Shown in pieces: positions 44,228-53,468 of a stretch of DNA of 64,000 nt. Each line of letters starts with the position of its first letter. Positions within the stretch are counted from its first letter, which is position 1. The position numbers were made by a program, and so were the translations under genes. The notes below the pieces were generated by a model. That model did not search any database. It was not told the DNA's origin and was given only the letters and a program-made list of their open reading frames with translations. Location of the stretch: the NCBI RefSeq assembly GCF_056746865.1, contig NZ_CM163382.1. One strand, 5' to 3'.

Positions 44228-44257
44228 GGCCGGGTAAGGCGTCACGCCGCATCCGGC
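44228..44257. repeat. REP (repetitive extragenic palindromic) element
   Basis: ggccgggtaaggcgtcacgccgcatccggc matches the E. coli REP consensus. Confidence 0.7.
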
Positions 44258-44267
44258 AATAAATGAC

Positions 44268-44719: not shown

Positions 44720-44896
44720 GTGAAACAAAGCGAGTTCAGACGTTGGCTCGAATCTCAGGGCGTCGATGTGGCGAATGGCAGCAACCATTTGAAACTCAGG
44801 TTTCAAGGGCGACGCAGTGTCATGCCGCGTCACCCCAGTGATGAGATAAAAGAACCATTGCGTAAAGCAATCCTGAAGCAACTCGGTTTGAGTTAA
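44720..44896 (+). CDS. hicA: Type II toxin HicA, mRNA interferase (58 aa)
   Basis: GTG start 5 nt after GGAGG; translation VKQSEFRRWLESQGVDVANGSNHLKLRFQGRRSVMPRHPSDEIKEPLRKAILKQLGLS; below the ORF-track cutoff. Confidence 0.85.
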   Translation: MKQSEFRRWLESQGVDVANGSNHLKLRFQGRRSVMPRHPSDEIKEPLRKAILKQLGLS

Positions 44897-44920
44897 TCGC
44901 CAATTAAAAAGGTTAATGAC

Positions 44921-45358
<438 letters not shown>

Positions 45359-45436
45359 TTACAGTTAACGAAAAGTTGTCATTTTTAACAACTGATATAG
45401 ACTGCCGAATCATCTGCACATAATTACGATTCGATA

Positions 45437-46843
45437 ATGAAAAAATACCAGCAGCTTGCAGAACAATTACGCGAGCAGATTGCGTCGGGTATCTGGCAAC
45501 CTGGCGATCGTTTGCCTTCGTTGCGTGACCAGGTGGCGCTTTCTGGCATGAGCTTTATGACTGTCAGCCATGCCTATCAGTTGCTCGAAAGTCAGGGATA
45601 TATTATCGCGCGACCGCAGTCGGGTTATTACGTTGCGCCACAGGCAATAAAAATGCCGAAAGCGCCAGTCATTCCAGTCACACGAGATGAAGCAGTCGAT
45701 ATCAACACCTATATTTTTGATATGTTGCAGGCCAGTCGCGATCCGTCGGTAGTTCCGTTTGCCTCGGCCTTTCCCGACCCGCGACTTTTCCCCCTCCAAC
45801 AACTAAACCGCTCGCTGGCGCAGGTAAGCAAAACCGCCACGGCGATGAGCGTGATTGAAAACTTACCGCCAGGAAACGCAGAACTGCGTCAGGCTATTGC
45901 TCGTCGCTATGCCTTACAGGGCATCACTATTTCTCCTGATGAAATTGTCATTACCGCCGGGGCGTTAGAGGCATTAAACCTCAGTTTACAAGCGGTCACT
46001 GAACCGGGCGATTGGGTGATAGTTGAGAATCCTTGTTTCTACGGCGCGTTGCAGGCGCTGGAGCGGTTACGGCTGAAGGCGTTATCGGTGGCGACGGACG
46101 TTAAAGAAGGGATTGATCTCAAGGCGCTGGAACTGGCGTTGCAGGAGTATCCGGTGAAAGCGTGCTGGCTGATGACTAATAGCCAGAATCCACTCGGATT
46201 TACCTTAACGCCGCAGAAAAAAGCGCGGCTGGTAGCGTTGCTCAATCAGTACAACGTAACGCTGATTGAAGATGACGTTTACAGCGAACTTTATTTTGGA
46301 CGGGAAAAACCGCTGCCTGCGAAAGCGTGGGATCACCACGATGGTGTTTTGCATTGCTCTTCGTTTTCGAAATGTCTGGTGCCTGGTTTTCGTATTGGTT
46401 GGGTCGCCGCCGGAAAACATGCACGTAAAATTCAACGCTTGCAGTTGATGAGTACGCTTTCCACCAGCTCACCGATGCAGCTTGCGCTGGTGGATTACCT
46501 TTCCACGCGCCGATACGACGCCCATCTTCGTCGCTTGCGTCGCCAGCTTGCGGAGCGTAAACAACGTGCCTGGCAGGCACTGCTGCGTTATCTGCCTGCG
46601 GAAGTGAAAATTCATCATAATGACAGCGGTTATTTTCTCTGGCTGGAACTCCCCGCGCCGTTAGATGCGGGCGAATTAAGCCTGGCGGCACTGACGCATC
46701 ATATCAGTATTGCGCCGGGTAAAATGTTTTCTACCGGTGAAAACTGGTCACGTTTTTTCCGTTTTAATACCGCGTGGCAGTGGGGAGAACGTGAAGAACA
46801 GGCGGTTAAACAATTAGGCAAACTTATTCAAGAACGGCTGTAA
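45437..46843 (+). CDS. ydcR: MocR/GabR-type regulator: GntR HTH fused to aminotransferase-like domain (468 aa)
   Basis: N-terminal GntR-type HTH plus PLP-fold-like C-terminal domain. Confidence 0.85.
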   Translation: MKKYQQLAEQLREQIASGIWQPGDRLPSLRDQVALSGMSFMTVSHAYQLLESQGYIIARPQSGYYVAPQAIKMPKAPVIPVTRDEAVDINTYIFDMLQASRDPSVVPFASAFPDPRLFPLQQLNRSLAQVSKTATAMSVIENLPPGNAELRQAIARRYALQGITISPDEIVITAGALEALNLSLQAVTEPGDWVIVENPCFYGALQALERLRLKALSVATDVKEGIDLKALELALQEYPVKACWLMTNSQNPLGFTLTPQKKARLVALLNQYNVTLIEDDVYSELYFGREKPLPAKAWDHHDGVLHCSSFSKCLVPGFRIGWVAAGKHARKIQRLQLMSTLSTSSPMQLALVDYLSTRRYDAHLRRLRRQLAERKQRAWQALLRYLPAEVKIHHNDSGYFLWLELPAPLDAGELSLAALTHHISIAPGKMFSTGENWSRFFRFNTAWQWGEREEQAVKQLGKLIQERL

Positions 46844-47087
46844 TAGCGTTTAATTAAATTCCTCTCAGGTTGGGTAATATGAATTTCGAATAGCAGTCAT
46901 ATTTCCTAACTCCTTGTCTATACTCCAGAAGATAACCTTACAGACGGCATAATGCGCGGTAGCTCACAACCTGATTAAATTTTCTCAGGGGCGAAGGTGT
47001 GCCTGCTAGCCGCCGTCTATGGTTAAACAAGGAGATATTTTTACGGCACGGCGGCTGAACAATTAATTACGACAGGAGTAAGACTTT

Positions 47088-48233
47088 ATGAGCAAGACAT
47101 TTGCCCGCAGCAGCCTGTGTGCGCTCACCATGACAATAATGACCGCTCACGCCGCCGAACCACCTACCAATTTAGATAAACCGGAAGGGCGACTGGATAT
47201 TATCGCCTGGCCGGGATACATCGAACGCGGACAAACTGATAAACAATACGACTGGGTAACGCAATTCGAAAAAGAGACAGGCTGCGCGGTGAATGTTAAA
47301 ACCGCCGCGACTTCCGATGAAATGGTCAGTCTGATGGCCAAAGGGGGTTACGATCTGGTTACGGCATCCGGCGATGCCTCGCTGCGCCTGATTATGGGCA
47401 AACGCGTGCAGCCGATTAATACCGCCTTGATTCCCAACTGGAAAGCGCTCGATCCGCGCGTGGTTAAAGGCGACTGGTTTAACGTTGGCGGCAAAGTTTA
47501 CGGCACACCTTACCAATGGGGGCCGAACCTGCTGATGTACAACACTAAAACCTTCCCGACGCCGCCGGATAGCTGGCAAGTGGTTTTTGTTGAGCAGAAT
47601 CTGCCGGACGGCAAGAGCAATAAAGGCCGCGTTCAGGCTTATGATGGCCCTATCTACATTGCGGACGCTGCGTTGTTCGTTAAAGCCACTCAGCCGCAGT
47701 TGGGCATCAGCGATCCGTATCAACTCACCGAAGAACAGTATCAGGCGGTGTTGAAAGTGCTGCGCGATCAACATAGTTTGATCCATCGCTACTGGCATGA
47801 CACTACCGTGCAAATGAGCGATTTCAAAAACGAGGGTGTGGTTGCTTCCAGTGCCTGGCCCTATCAGGCCAACGCCCTGAAAGCCGAAGGCCAGCCTGTC
47901 GCGACCGTATTCCCGAAAGAGGGCGTTACCGGTTGGGCTGACACCACCATGCTACATAGTGAAGCGAAACATCCGGTTTGCGCCTACAAATGGATGAACT
48001 GGTCATTAACGCCAAAAGTGCAGGGCGATGTGGCGGCCTGGTTTGGCTCGTTACCGGTAGTGCCGGAAGGGTGTAAAGCCAGTCCGTTATTAGGCGAAAA
48101 AGGTTGTGAAACCAACGGTTTTAACTATTTCGATAAAATCGCCTTCTGGAAAACGCCTATAGCAGAAGGGGGCAAGTTTGTTCCCTACAGTCGCTGGACG
48201 CAGGATTACATTGCCATTATGGGCGGTCGCTAA
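47088..48233 (+). CDS. ydcS: Periplasmic substrate-binding protein of ABC transporter (polyamine-type), 381 aa
   Basis: Signal peptide and PotD/PotF-like binding-protein sequence. Confidence 0.85.
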   Translation: MSKTFARSSLCALTMTIMTAHAAEPPTNLDKPEGRLDIIAWPGYIERGQTDKQYDWVTQFEKETGCAVNVKTAATSDEMVSLMAKGGYDLVTASGDASLRLIMGKRVQPINTALIPNWKALDPRVVKGDWFNVGGKVYGTPYQWGPNLLMYNTKTFPTPPDSWQVVFVEQNLPDGKSNKGRVQAYDGPIYIADAALFVKATQPQLGISDPYQLTEEQYQAVLKVLRDQHSLIHRYWHDTTVQMSDFKNEGVVASSAWPYQANALKAEGQPVATVFPKEGVTGWADTTMLHSEAKHPVCAYKWMNWSLTPKVQGDVAAWFGSLPVVPEGCKASPLLGEKGCETNGFNYFDKIAFWKTPIAEGGKFVPYSRWTQDYIAIMGGR

Positions 48234-48250
48234 CTTCGCTGGGGTGCTTT

Positions 48251-49264
48251 ATGACGTACGCAGTGGAGTTTGACAACGTCTCGCGGTTGTACGGTGACGT
48301 GCGCGCAGTAGATGGCGTCAGTATTGCGATAAAAGATGGTGAGTTCTTCTCTATGCTGGGGCCGTCCGGCTCCGGCAAAACTACCTGCCTGCGCCTGATT
48401 GCTGGCTTCGAACAGCTTTCTGGCGGGGCTATCTCTATCTTTGGTAAACCCGCCAGCAATCTGCCACCGTGGGAGCGGGACGTGAATACTGTCTTCCAGG
48501 ACTACGCGCTATTTCCGCATATGTCGATTCTTGACAATGTCGCCTATGGGCTGATGGTCAAAGGCGTGAATAAAAAGCAGCGGCACGCAATGGCGCAAGA
48601 GGCGCTGGAGAAAGTGGCGTTGGGGTTTGTACAGCAACGTAAACCGTCACAACTTTCTGGTGGTCAGCGCCAGCGGGTTGCTATCGCCAGAGCATTGGTG
48701 AATGAACCGCGCGTATTGCTGTTGGATGAACCGCTCGGCGCACTGGATCTCAAATTGCGTGAGCAGATGCAGCTGGAACTGAAAAAACTGCAACAATCTC
48801 TCGGTATCACTTTTATCTTCGTTACCCACGATCAGGGCGAAGCGTTATCGATGTCCGATCGTGTGGCGGTTTTCAATAATGGACGCATTGAGCAGGTCGA
48901 TTCCCCGCGCGATCTCTATATGCGCCCGCGCACGCCGTTTGTTGCCGGGTTCGTTGGTACATCGAATGTTTTTGATGGACTGATGGCAGAGAAACTTTGT
49001 GGCATGACGGGAAGCTTCGCCCTGCGACCGGAACATATCCGCCTCAACACCCCTGGTGAACTGCAGGCCAATGGCACGATCCAGGCGGTGCAATATCAGG
49101 GCGCGGCAACTCGTTTTGAACTGAGACTGAACGGCGGTGAAAAACTGCTTGTGAGTCAGGCCAATATGACAGGCGAAGAACTGCCTGCCACGCTCACGCC
49201 CGGACAACAAGTGATGGTTTCCTGGTCGCGTGATGTGATGGTGCCGCTGGTTGAGGAGAGGTGA
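48251..49264 (+). CDS. ydcT: ABC transporter ATP-binding protein (337 aa)
   Basis: Walker A GPSGSGKTT, ABC signature LSGGQRQR, Walker B LLLDEP. Confidence 0.9.
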   Translation: MTYAVEFDNVSRLYGDVRAVDGVSIAIKDGEFFSMLGPSGSGKTTCLRLIAGFEQLSGGAISIFGKPASNLPPWERDVNTVFQDYALFPHMSILDNVAYGLMVKGVNKKQRHAMAQEALEKVALGFVQQRKPSQLSGGQRQRVAIARALVNEPRVLLLDEPLGALDLKLREQMQLELKKLQQSLGITFIFVTHDQGEALSMSDRVAVFNNGRIEQVDSPRDLYMRPRTPFVAGFVGTSNVFDGLMAEKLCGMTGSFALRPEHIRLNTPGELQANGTIQAVQYQGAATRFELRLNGGEKLLVSQANMTGEELPATLTPGQQVMVSWSRDVMVPLVEER

Positions 49265-50206
49265 ATGGCGATGAACGTATTGCAATCACCTTCACGTCCA
49301 GGAGTTGGAAAGATATCCGGCTTTTTCTGGCGAAAACCAGGACTGGGGCTGTTTTTGTTGCTGCTTGGCCCGCTAATGTGGTTTGGCATTGTCTATTTCG
49401 GCTCGCTGCTAACGCTGTTATGGCAGGGCTTTTATACTTTTGACGATTTCACCATGTCGGTAACGCCGGAACTGACGCTGGCGAATATCCGTGCGCTGTT
49501 TAATCCGGCGAATTACGACATCATTCTCCGCACGCTGATTATGGCTGTGGCAGTCACTATCGCCAGCGCCATTCTGGCTTTTCCAATGGCGTGGTATATG
49601 GCGCGCTATACCAGCGGGAAAATGAAAGCGTTTTTTTATATCGCGGTAATGTTGCCGATGTGGGCGAGCTACATTGTTAAAGCCTATGCCTGGACGTTAT
49701 TGCTGGCGAAAGATGGTGTGGCGCAGTGGTTTTTACAACATCTGGGGCTGGAACCACTGCTGACAGCGTTCCTTACATTACCAGCGGTGGGCGGTAACAC
49801 GCTGTCAACTTCCGGGCTGGGGCGCTTTCTGGTGTTTCTCTATATCTGGCTGCCGTTCATGATCCTGCCCGTGCAGGCGGCGCTTGAGCGTTTGCCGCCG
49901 TCATTGTTGCAGGCGTCGGCTGATCTTGGCGCACGTCCACGGCAAACCTTTCGCTATGTGGTACTGCCGCTGGCAATCCCGGGTATTGCCGCTGGCTCTA
50001 TCTTTACCTTTTCACTCACACTGGGCGATTTTATCGTCCCGCAGCTGGTTGGCCCTCCAGGATATTTTATCGGCAATATGGTTTATTCCCAGCAGGGAGC
50101 GATTGGCAATATGCCGATGGCGGCGGCATTCACCCTGGTGCCGATTGTTCTCATCGCACTGTACCTGGCGTTCGTGAAACGTCTGGGAGCGTTCGATGCA
50201 CTCTGA
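49265..50206 (+). CDS. ydcU: ABC transporter permease (313 aa)
   Basis: Multi-pass membrane ORF abutting the ydcT stop. Confidence 0.85.
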
Positions 50207-50990
50207 ACGCGCACCGTTTTTCCTCAAACTGGCGGCCTGGGGCGGCGTGGTTTTCCTACATTTTCCCATTCTGATTATCGCCGCCTATGCGTTTAACACT
50301 GAAGATGCGGCGTTTAGTTTTCCACCGCAAGGCCTGACGCTGCGCTGGTTTAGCGTGGCAGCACAGCGCAGTGATATTCTTGAGGCTGTGACACTGTCAC
50401 TTAAAGTGGCGGTGCTGGCGACATTAATTGCGCTGGTGTTAGGGACGCTGGCCGCTGCCGCGCTGTGGCGACGAGACTTTTTCGGCAAAAACGCCATTTC
50501 GCTGTTACTGCTGCTGCCCATTGCGCTGCCGGGTATTGTCACTGGTCTGGCGCTATTAACCGCCTTTAAAACCATCGATCTGGAGCCGGGATTTTTCACC
50601 ATCGTGGTCGGTCATGCGACTTTTTGCGTAGTGGTGGTGTTTAACAATGTCATCGCCCGTTTTCGCCGCACCTCGTGCAGTCTGGTTGAGGCGTCAATGG
50701 ATCTTGGGGCCAATGGCTGGCAAACCTTCCGCTACGTAGTGTTGCCGAATCTCAGTTCGGCGCTACTGGCAGGAGGAATGCTGGCGTTTGCCTTGTCGTT
50801 CGATGAAATCATCGTGACGACCTTTACGGCAGGTCATGAACGAACGTTACCGTTGTGGTTGCTCAATCAGCTTGGGCGACCGCGTGATGTACCGGTAACC
50901 AACGTGGTGGCACTGCTGGTTATGTTGGTAACAACCTTGCCGATCCTGGGAGCCTGGTGGCTAACCCGCGAAGGCGACAATGGTCAATAA
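50196..50990 (+). CDS. ydcV: ABC transporter permease (264 aa)
   Basis: Multi-pass membrane ORF overlapping the ydcU end. Confidence 0.85.
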
Positions 50991-51011
50991 CCACTGATAC
51001 AGGAATATGCT

Positions 51012-52436
51012 ATGCAACATAAGTTACTGATTAACGGAGAACTGGTTAGCGGCGAAGGGGAGAAACAGCCTGTCTATAATCCGGCAACGGGGGAAGTTTT
51101 ACTGGAGATTGCCGAGGCATCTGCAGAGCAGGTCGATGCCGCTGTTCGTGCAGCAGATGCAGCATTTGCCGAATGGGGGCAAACCACGCCGAAAGCGCGT
51201 GCGGAATGCCTGCTGAAACTGGCGGATGTAATCGAAGAAAATGGTCAAGTTTTTGCCGAACTGGAGTCCCGTAACTGTGGCAAACCGCTGCATAGTGCGT
51301 TCAATGATGAAATTCCGGCGATTGTCGATGTCTTTCGCTTTTTCGCCGGAGCAGCTCGCTGCCTGAATGGTCTGGCGGCAGGTGAATATCTTGAAGGTCA
51401 TACTTCGATGATCCGTCGCGATCCGTTGGGGGTCGTGGCTTCGATCGCACCGTGGAATTATCCGCTGATGATGGCTGCGTGGAAACTGGCTCCGGCGCTG
51501 GCGGCAGGGAATTGCGTAGTGCTCAAACCATCAGAAATTACCCCGCTGACAGCGTTGAAGTTGGCAGAGCTGGCGAAAGATATCTTCCCAGCTGGCGTGA
51601 TTAACGTGCTGTTTGGCAGAGGCAAAACGGTGGGCGATCCGCTGACCGGACATCCCAAAGTACGGATGGTGTCACTGACGGGCTCTATCGCCACTGGGGA
51701 ACACATCATCAGCCATACCGCGCCGTCCATAAAGCTTACTCATATGGAACTTGGAGGCAAAGCGCCAGTGATAGTTTTTGATGATGCGGATATTGAAGCG
51801 GTGGTCGAAGGTGTACGTACTTTTGGCTATTACAATGCCGGACAGGATTGTACTGCGGCTTGTCGGATCTACGCGCAAAAAGGTATTTACGATACGCTGG
51901 TGGAAAAACTCGGTGCTGCAGTGGCAACGTTAAAATCTGGTGCGCCGGATGACGAGTCTACGGAGCTTGGACCTTTAAGCTCACTGGCGCATCTCGATCG
52001 CGTCAGCAAAGCAGTAGAAGAGGCGAAAGCGACAGGGCACATCAAAGTGATCACTGGCGGTGAAAAGCGCAAGGGTAATGGCTATTACTATGCGCCGACG
52101 CTACTGGCTGGCGCATTACAGGACGATGCCATCGTGCAAAAAGAGGTATTTGGTCCGGTAGTGAGTGTTACGCTCTTTGACAATGAAGAACAGGTGGTAA
52201 ACTGGGCAAATGACAGCCAGTACGGACTTGCATCCTCGGTATGGACGAAAGATGTGGGCAGGGCGCATCGCGTCAGCGCACGGCTACAATATGGTTGTAC
52301 CTGGGTCAATACCCATTTCATGCTGGTAAGTGAAATGCCGCACGGTGGGCAGAAACTTTCTGGTTACGGCAAGGATATGTCACTTTATGGGCTGGAGGAT
52401 TACACCGTCGTCCGCCACGTCATGGTTAAACATTAA
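51012..52436 (+). CDS. patD: Gamma-aminobutyraldehyde dehydrogenase (474 aa)
   Basis: Aldehyde dehydrogenase family (catalytic Cys region, ELGGKAP). Confidence 0.9.
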
Positions 52437-52658: not shown

Positions 52659-53468
52659 ATGAAAGTTCAATTGTATAAATTCACGGAAGATAAAAATAAA
52701 ACCCTTACCTTCAGGTGGACGAAAAAACACTTTGAGTTTTGTATGGATAATAAAATCTTTTTAAATCATAAGGGGAAGAAGTCGTATAAAGAAAGAAATT
52801 TATTTCTTTTCTCAAAAGGTGACAAGATAACAATTGAAGATAATGTTATTGCTGAAGAATATTCAACAATGCCTGTAAAAAATTTCTCCAGTGTCGGCGC
52901 TTTTTCATTCCCGACCTGTCATTTTACAGGGAATATACATATAGGTCGATTTTGTAGTATTGCATCAAATGTAAAAATAATGGGAGGAAATCATCCTTTG
53001 AATCGTTTTACTACTCACATGATGACTTATAACGGTGAATTTGATAAGTTTGCTAAGAGTGAGTTTGAACGTAGCTGGACATTGAAACCATTCATTACCA
53101 AACCTGAAAATCCGATTATAGGAAATGATGTCTGGATAGGAAATGATGTTGTACTGAAAGGTGGCATCGCAATAGGTGATGGTGCTGTTATTGCTGCCAA
53201 TTCCGTTGTTACCAAAGATGTGCCCCCATATGCCATAGTTGCAGGAGTTCCTGCAAAAATAATCAGATTTAGATTTGATTCAAATGTTATTGATGAATTG
53301 TTGAGAATAAAGTGGTGGAATTATAATTACTCAGATCTTCCGGATAATAACAAATGTGATGATATAAATTATTTTGTTGAAGAGATGAATCGATTGATAT
53401 CAAATGGAAATATTCAAGAGATGGACTATAAAAAATTCAATCTTTCTGAGATATTTAGAGACCTATAA
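52659..53468 (+). CDS. Hexapeptide-repeat acetyltransferase of the XAT family (streptogramin A acetyltransferase Vat / CatB-like) with N- and C-terminal extensions, 269 aa
   Basis: AT-rich ORF with no K-12 counterpart that I recognise; core IGRFCSIA...GGNHPLNRF...IGNDVWIGNDVV...IGDGAVIAANSVVTKDVPPYAIVAGVPAKIIRFRFD...IKWWNY aligns by eye with remembered Vat(D)/CatB motifs; true start uncertain (weak RBS, alternative ATGs at 52743 and 52869). Confidence 0.75.
   Translation: MKVQLYKFTEDKNKTLTFRWTKKHFEFCMDNKIFLNHKGKKSYKERNLFLFSKGDKITIEDNVIAEEYSTMPVKNFSSVGAFSFPTCHFTGNIHIGRFCSIASNVKIMGGNHPLNRFTTHMMTYNGEFDKFAKSEFERSWTLKPFITKPENPIIGNDVWIGNDVVLKGGIAIGDGAVIAANSVVTKDVPPYAIVAGVPAKIIRFRFDSNVIDELLRIKWWNYNYSDLPDNNKCDDINYFVEEMNRLISNGNIQEMDYKKFNLSEIFRDL

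Follow-up and report, generated by a model that had tools for sequence, protein, structure and literature searches.

The MocR-type regulator YdcR and the neighbouring ydcSTUV-patD operon of Escherichia coli as two probably independent transcription units

We examined a 7-kb stretch of the Escherichia coli chromosome (positions 45437-52436) inside a 64-kb window, which is the whole stretch of DNA that was analysed. It holds the gene of the MocR-type regulator YdcR, followed by ydcS, ydcT, ydcU, ydcV and patD. A preliminary description of the sequence had suggested that these genes form one regulon, taken here as direct control of ydcSTUV-patD by YdcR, whereas our analysis points to two side-by-side units that are probably independent. 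All six genes lie on the + strand, with distances from ydcR to patD of 244, 17, 0, -11 (an overlap) and 21 bp. Their identities and coordinates in the preliminary description held up in full: the open reading frames match exactly, and both Pfam and the RefSeq annotation, which has the same six genes as the open reading frame list, agree. E. coli 118UI matches the stretch at 100% identity, and 80% or more of it is present in 5398 of 5426 complete E. coli genomes. It is an ordinary, already described E. coli locus, and the question of the regulator's targets has been addressed in print. The genes are as follows.

45437-46843, + strand: ydcR, MocR-type regulator of 468 residues (open reading frames, Pfam)
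47088-48233, + strand: ydcS, periplasmic binding protein (open reading frames; Pfam SBP_bac_8/SBP_bac_1)
48251-49264, + strand: ydcT, ATPase (open reading frames; Pfam ABC_tran and TOBE_2)
49265-50206, + strand: ydcU, permease (open reading frames; Pfam BPD_transp_1)
50196-50990, + strand: ydcV, permease (open reading frames; Pfam BPD_transp_1)
51012-52436, + strand: patD (ydcW), gamma-aminobutyraldehyde dehydrogenase, the final gene of the operon (Pfam Aldedh; NCBIfam ABALDH)

YdcR has the domain structure of a MocR-type regulator, as the preliminary description had recognized. An N-terminal GntR winged helix-turn-helix (PF00392, residues 3-66, E 1.1e-14) is joined to an aminotransferase-like domain of fold-type I (Aminotran_1_2, PF00155, residues 141-445). 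The pyridoxal 5'-phosphate (PLP) lysine of this domain is K312 in the motif SSFSK and aligns with the SFSK lysine of LysN (2egy). Furthermore, two to four repeated half-sites in the regulator's own or divergent promoter, another mark of the family, are present in the cioA/ydcR promoters described below. Binding of PLP by E. coli YdcR has been shown by intact-protein mass spectrometry (Pfanzelt et al., PMC9321722). YdcR scores below the curated NCBIfam cut-off of every named MocR equivalog, reaching 267.8 bits against a cut-off of 320 for PdxR, 241.5 against 487 for YczR, 183 against 480 for EhuR, 180.7 against 650 for MocR, 125 against 573 for PtsJ and 122.3 against 600 for GabR. In sequence, its C-terminal domain resembles true aminotransferases (LysN 2egy, E 8e-44) more than it does the regulator GabR (E 8e-22). 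The protein is still catalogued as an E. coli transcription factor whose function is unknown (PMC9308461), and we agree with the preliminary description that its effector is not established. The gene appears to be maintained in E. coli, since the ratio of nonsynonymous to synonymous substitution rates (dN/dS) within Escherichia is 0.03-0.06, similar to neighbouring genes and indicative of purifying selection, and the junction between ydcR and the upstream gene hicB is found in 5408 of the 5426 genomes.

Binding of YdcR to this locus has been studied by electrophoretic mobility shift assay (EMSA). The protein shifted its own promoter fragment, PRydcR, from 50 nM, and the PRydcR-ydcS fragment was the negative control (PMC9321722). 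The primers of that study map to 45322-45524, which contains the candidate operator described below, and to 46844-47088, which is the whole ydcR-ydcS spacer. Putrescine and PLP were included in the EMSA with no effect reported, and according to a legend in the same paper the ydcSTUV-patD operon has its own promoter (PMC9321722). A regulon reconstruction by Suvorova and Rodionov (2016) placed YdcR in the largest MocR orthologous group, which also contains PA4132 (MpaR) of Pseudomonas aeruginosa. The predicted regulon consists of ylaC in E. coli and Salmonella, of ylaC plus CydAB-like genes in Klebsiella and Serratia, and of CydAB, NapH or CcoN genes in other Proteobacteria, and ydcS is absent from the supplement of that reconstruction (PMC5320631). 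In Salmonella, YdcR directly controls srfN (PMC7400052). MpaR drives cyanide-inducible genes, for which it depends on an ATCTGAT motif and on its PLP lysine, and has been proposed to sense PLP-cyanohydrin (PMC10790758).

We compared 80 Enterobacteriaceae loci with 10-kb flanks (Salmonella is not among them). The order ydcR, ydcSTUV, patD is conserved in most of them. In 12 lineages ydcSTUV has been lost and patD lies directly 3' of ydcR (L021, L022, L024, L033, L043, L059, L067-L069, L071, L072 and L079), and in three lineages (L029, L038 and L081) ydcR and ydcS are separated by 2.5-4.3 kb of inserted DNA. On the opposite strand and divergent from ydcR, about 65 of the 75 non-Escherichia loci carry a cioA-cioB-DUF2474 operon, which encodes a Cyt_bd_oxida_I protein of 465 residues, a Cyt_bd_oxida_II protein of 336 residues and a DUF2474 protein of 42 residues. 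cioAB is absent from the window and from the four other Escherichia loci (L001-L005 are the Escherichia loci), and hicAB stands in its place.

44720-45358, + strand: hicA (44720-44896) and hicB (44942-45358), toxin-antitoxin pair (annotation)

In some Citrobacter loci hicAB and cioAB are present together, and a copy of the operator lies on each side.

A wider search of 1.84 billion representative proteins, followed by gene-context look-ups, covered seven distant homologues of YdcR. The nearest relative beyond the Enterobacteriaceae, at 55% identity, retains the divergent cioAB-DUF2474 operon together with the motif (25.7 bits). Downstream it has unrelated genes, encoding an AraC regulator, an alcohol dehydrogenase, a cyclase and an arginase, and an unrelated Aldedh gene lies upstream, beyond DUF2474. 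A relative at 49% identity adjoins a NapH/FixG-like gene. In none of the seven did an ABC transporter or aldehyde dehydrogenase gene lie immediately downstream. The link of ydcR to the oxidase operon is therefore older and wider than its link to ydcSTUV-patD, a pairing that is limited to a single family and that inheritance can account for. The pattern of the YdcR/MpaR group, a regulator that adjoins terminal-oxidase or redox genes and a common motif, was seen in about 65 related loci and in the 55% homologue; it fails in the window itself, where cioAB is absent.

Sixteen lineages have compact divergent cioA/ydcR spacers of 147-210 bp. Their alignment revealed the invariant blocks CAGAAACAG and ATAACAGT and, 27 bp further, CTG(A/T)TATA, and the near-invariant element present in both promoters is ATAACAGTT-N25-CTG(A/T)TATA (CTGWTATA). 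The cioA/ydcR promoters additionally carry a CAGRRMCAG-N17 repeat. In lineages whose cioA and ydcR have been pushed apart by insertions, there are two complete copies of ATAACAGTT-N25-CTGWTATA, one about 85 bp from the start of cioA and the other 67-82 bp from the ydcR ATG. Both halves at a fixed spacing in each promoter would fit the operator of a dimeric regulator, unlike two back-to-back -10 boxes, and from this conservation we infer that the element is the YdcR site. To train a 47-nt matrix we used 77 instances from outside Escherichia, with a minimum score of 28.1 bits and a median of 46.0. Scanned with the full matrix, the 64-kb window has one strong site at 45355-45401, with 38.8 bits compared to 6.2 for the second-best. 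The exact pattern also matches once in the window and not at all in shuffles.

45358-45399, no strand assigned: candidate YdcR operator ATTACAGTT-N25-CTGATATA (predicted by matrix and pattern)

Relative to the ydcR ATG, the two halves lie 79 and 45 bp upstream, the same placement as in Citrobacter. The proximal half-site is strong (18.1 bits). The distal half-site scores 3.3 bits and reads ATTACAG, with an A-to-T change at an otherwise invariant position (ATTAAAG in L002); it starts on the base that ends the hicB stop codon (45356-45358). With its distal half degenerate, the Escherichia copy of the operator is recognizable yet weakened on the hicB-stop side. We also scored the cioA-proximal direct repeat as a matrix, which gave 15.3 bits upstream of K-12 ylaC and no more than -5.6 in the rest of the 8-kb region. 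This site (L082, 5319-5356) has the form GTAACAG-N17-ATAACAGTT, is located about 96 bp upstream of the start of ylaC and has the layout and orientation of the cioA-proximal repeat of other genera, in agreement with the published prediction of ylaC as a YdcR target.

The preliminary description had proposed the ydcR-ydcS spacer (46844-47087) as the place to look for operators of the regulator, and our search there was negative for a YdcR-type element. The full bipartite matrix gave -14.0 bits in this spacer, compared to 38.8 upstream of ydcR, and a maximum of -7.5 bits across 75 orthologous ydcR-ydcS or ydcR-patD spacers (shuffled maximum -8.4). The direct-repeat matrix reached at most -7.0 in the orthologous downstream spacers and at most 0.4 in the window as a whole. 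The highest half-site score in the E. coli spacer, 2.5 bits, is at the level of shuffled sequence (shuffled median 1.8). The proposal of a single regulon under direct YdcR control thus finds no site in the spacer or its 75 orthologues, and it sits poorly with the use of this spacer as the published EMSA negative control, with a regulon reconstruction that lacks ydcS and with the reported dependence of the operon on RpoS and Nac.

A repeat search of the spacer revealed no direct-repeat family. An indel-containing repeat surfaced only with the gapped pattern ATTAAATT(CC/T)TCTCAGG, which has two matches in the window, both in the spacer, and none in shuffles.

46853-46869, + strand: ATTAAATTCCTCTCAGG, first copy of the imperfect direct repeat (gapped pattern)
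46974-46989, + strand: ATTAAATTTTCTCAGG, second copy, 121 bp from the first (gapped pattern)

The first copy is confined to Escherichia and the second overlaps a conserved block. About 90 bp of the ancestral spacer, including the terminator hairpin of some genera, is missing in Escherichia, and the repeat may be the scar of a local rearrangement. We rejected it as a MocR operator because it is Escherichia-specific and unlike the YdcR half-site.

Cross-genera alignment of the spacer revealed the following conserved blocks.

46906-46928, + strand: putative promoter block CTAACTCCTTGTCTATACTCCAG, near-invariant across 23 genera-level sequences
46951-46982, + strand: block AATGCGC...TCACAACCTGA..AAATTT
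47013-47052, + strand: leader blocks CCGTCTA...GGAGATATTTTTACGGCACGGC
47070-47081, + strand: ribosome-binding block CGACAGGAGTAA

The first block contains a sigma-S-type -10 sequence, CTATACT, at 46918-46924, and we infer that this is the -10 of ydcS and the block its promoter. The promoter and leader blocks are retained before patD in several lineages that lack ydcSTUV, and the block at 46951-46982 is not a YdcR half-site by its score. Expression of ydcST was previously found to be down 125- and 22-fold in an rpoS mutant (PMC2907692), and papers place ydcSTUV-patD in the Ntr-Nac regulon, with expression that depends on RpoS and Nac. A scan of the spacer with the sigma-70 consensus gave no match. 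Two further candidates were set aside. A sigma-54 promoter in ACGGCACGGCTGCCGC was dropped, as E. coli lacks the -12 GC and the RpoN/NtrC lists from genomic SELEX (systematic evolution of ligands by exponential enrichment) contain no ydcS in the accessible part of the source (PMC8743547). The upstream block CATAGGAAAT..GCATA as a possible Nac-type site was a guess only.

The 5' region of ydcS was screened for riboswitches and leader RNAs, with no match in Rfam. In an RNAalifold analysis of 36 sequences the only structure was an invariant hairpin of 4 bp, without covariation. A small CGGCA-CGGC-TGCCG hairpin is present in the leader of most genera; E. coli instead has a 9-bp stem, AGCCGCCGT/ACGGCGGCT (47008-47016/47048-47056), which folds no better than shuffles (z -0.71). 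No terminator-like site was found within 46844-47087. The hairpin after E. coli ydcR is weak and AU-rich (-15.7 kcal/mol, z -1.85), and Silvania and L078 have clear hairpin-plus-U-run terminators after ydcR.

The preliminary description's view of ydcSTUV-patD as one tightly packed unit stands, with the gene order kept in most of the 80 loci and co-regulation reported. PatD scores 1034.6 bits against the NCBIfam aminobutyraldehyde dehydrogenase equivalog (ABALDH, TIGR03374), above the cut-off of 909.3. The Pfam families of YdcS, YdcT, YdcU and YdcV give the layout of an ATP-binding cassette (ABC) importer, with a binding protein, an ATPase and two permeases. This is the four-component layout of PotABCD and PotFGHI, with the same Pfam families, and the best NCBIfam matches of YdcT, YdcU and YdcV are PotA, PotB/H and PotC/I. 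The likeness does not extend to the level of a Pot equivalog, as YdcS reaches 62.9 and 45.9 bits against cut-offs of 636 for PotF and 582 for PotD, and YdcT is below the PotA cut-offs. ydcSTUV is a PotABCD/PotFGHI-like importer, with an amine, probably putrescine-like, as its putative substrate. Papers assert polyamine transport by ydcSTUV, citing no assay there, and the other roles reported are polyhydroxybutyrate (PHB) synthase activity and uptake of double-stranded DNA in plate transformation (PMC6135910).

Two features of the window lie outside the stretch. Just 3' of patD is a gene for a CatB-related O-acetyltransferase (52659-53468), which looks like an acquired accessory islet because of its low GC content (0.30-0.34, compared to about 0.53 in its neighbours) and its presence in only 1158 of the 5426 complete E. 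coli genomes. Between rlhA and yncJ, an Rfam match to naRNA4 at 44228-44267 fell below threshold (30.9 bits against a gathering score of 59.5) and is probably a repetitive extragenic palindromic (REP)-type element.

We consider it likely that the locus consists of two independent, side-by-side transcription units, ydcR with its own operator and ydcSTUV-patD with its own promoter. In the first unit, PLP-binding YdcR would bind the bipartite operator in its own promoter at 45358-45399. The divergent cytochrome bd oxidase operon cioA-cioB-DUF2474, with the same operator in its promoter, would be the ancestral partner of ydcR in the Enterobacteriaceae. The Escherichia lineage lacks this operon and has hicAB at the site, and ydcR is kept there under purifying selection, with ylaC as a predicted remote target through its GTAACAG-N17-ATAACAGTT site. 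In the second unit, an amine importer would work with a dehydrogenase that converts gamma-aminobutyraldehyde to gamma-aminobutyric acid (GABA). This operon would be driven by its own conserved promoter in the 244-bp spacer, under the reported control of RpoS and Ntr-Nac and not through binding of YdcR.

Several points weigh against this reading. The operator assignment is computational and the supporting EMSA fragment is about 200 bp long, so that the operator is a candidate site only, and in E. coli its distal half is degenerate. The authors of PMC9321722 loosely call the bound region 'upstream of a putrescine transporter'. The sequence of ydcR and then ydcSTUV-patD is conserved throughout the Enterobacteriaceae, and the adjacency of ydcR and patD is kept in the 12 lineages without ydcSTUV, and this could be a sign of a functional link and not just of inheritance. 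The spacer may also hold an effector-dependent YdcR site, because the EMSA was performed in vitro without the true effector, and read-through could couple ydcR to ydcSTUV-patD because there is no canonical terminator after E. coli ydcR. Finally, the analogy to MpaR taken up below rests on an orthologous-group table.

Coupling by read-through is an alternative that we think unlikely. Transcripts from the autoregulated ydcR promoter would run into ydcSTUV-patD and give these genes a partial dependence on YdcR without any operator in the spacer. This would fit the lack of a terminator-like site in 46844-47087, the weak AU-rich hairpin in comparison with the clear terminators of Silvania and L078, and the loss of about 90 bp of ancestral spacer in E. 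coli. However, the sigma-S-type promoter block, which is strongly conserved, is enough to account for expression, and the 125- and 22-fold fall of ydcST in the rpoS mutant (PMC2907692) also argues against it.

Direct activation or repression of ydcSTUV-patD by YdcR from a site in the 244-bp spacer, with an amine, an aminoaldehyde or GABA as the signal, seems to us quite improbable. The gene order kept in most of the 80 loci and the survival of ydcR-patD adjacency after loss of ydcSTUV would agree with such control, as would the precedent of the related MocR regulator GabR, which controls GABA genes (PMC5320631), and the spacer does have conserved blocks of unassigned function as well as the Escherichia-specific direct repeat. 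However, neither a full YdcR-type site nor a half-site was found in the E. coli spacer or its 75 orthologues, and the direct repeat is not conserved beyond Escherichia. The spacer fragment is an EMSA negative control in a study that included putrescine plus PLP and mentions no effect (PMC9321722), and the regulon reconstruction omits ydcS (PMC5320631). Furthermore, the adjacency is gone in homologues at or below 55% identity, and the 2.5-4.3 kb insertions of L029, L038 and L081 split ydcR from ydcS. That E. coli ydcR is a functionless relic of the loss of cioAB is highly improbable: the ancestral divergent target is absent from Escherichia and the distal operator half is degenerate there (mostly ATTACAG, with ATTAAAG in L002), but dN/dS is 0.03-0.06, 5398 of 5426 genomes have an intact copy, YdcR binds PLP and DNA in vitro (PMC9321722), a matching site lies upstream of ylaC, and the Salmonella protein directly controls srfN (PMC7400052).

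The two-unit reading can be set beside characterized members of the family. MpaR (PA4132), a cyanide-responsive MocR-type activator of ccoN4 and nirA in P. aeruginosa, is in the same orthologous group as YdcR (PMC5320631). The two proteins are alike in having a GntR winged helix-turn-helix and a PLP-type domain with an essential lysine, in being autoregulated and in adjoining terminal-oxidase genes, and the MpaR motif ATCTGAT and the enterobacterial CTGATATA half-site have a common CTGAT core. Unlike MpaR, however, E. coli ydcR has no adjacent oxidase genes, and a cyanide response has been shown for MpaR only (PMC10790758). The enterobacterial operator is a 42-bp bipartite inverted repeat, whereas that of MpaR is a single 7-bp palindrome. 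The ydcR-divergent operon of other genera resembles a cyanide-insensitive oxidase (CIO)-type cytochrome bd (CioAB) and is not a CydA or AppC equivalog; this putative assignment is based on subunit size and family context, and the operon is not in the window. By analogy with MpaR, the signal of YdcR could be cyanide or another PLP-reactive molecule. More tentatively, E. coli YdcR may be an MpaR-type sensor of such a molecule that has outlived its cyanide-insensitive oxidase operon, controlling only itself and remote small genes (ylaC, and srfN in Salmonella) and affecting ydcSTUV-patD at most via read-through; we see this as possible, but as the less probable case.

GabR, the regulator of gabTD in Bacillus subtilis, has the same domain architecture as YdcR and a PLP lysine with the same number, K312. 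It acts as an autorepressor and as an activator of a divergent operon, with the widely spaced repeated half-sites that are typical of the MocR family (PMC5320631). YdcR differs from GabR in its score (122 bits against the 600-bit cut-off) and in the sequence and symmetry of its half-sites and has no reported effect of GABA or putrescine (PMC9321722).

The exact bases of the candidate operator are now defined, at 45358-45366 and 45392-45399. The gene neighbourhood of ydcR invites the wrong guess that YdcR is a polyamine or GABA regulator, and in annotation ydcSTUV-patD should not be filed under the YdcR regulon on adjacency alone. Comparison across relatives suggests instead that the ancestral role of YdcR lay in respiration and cyanide stress.

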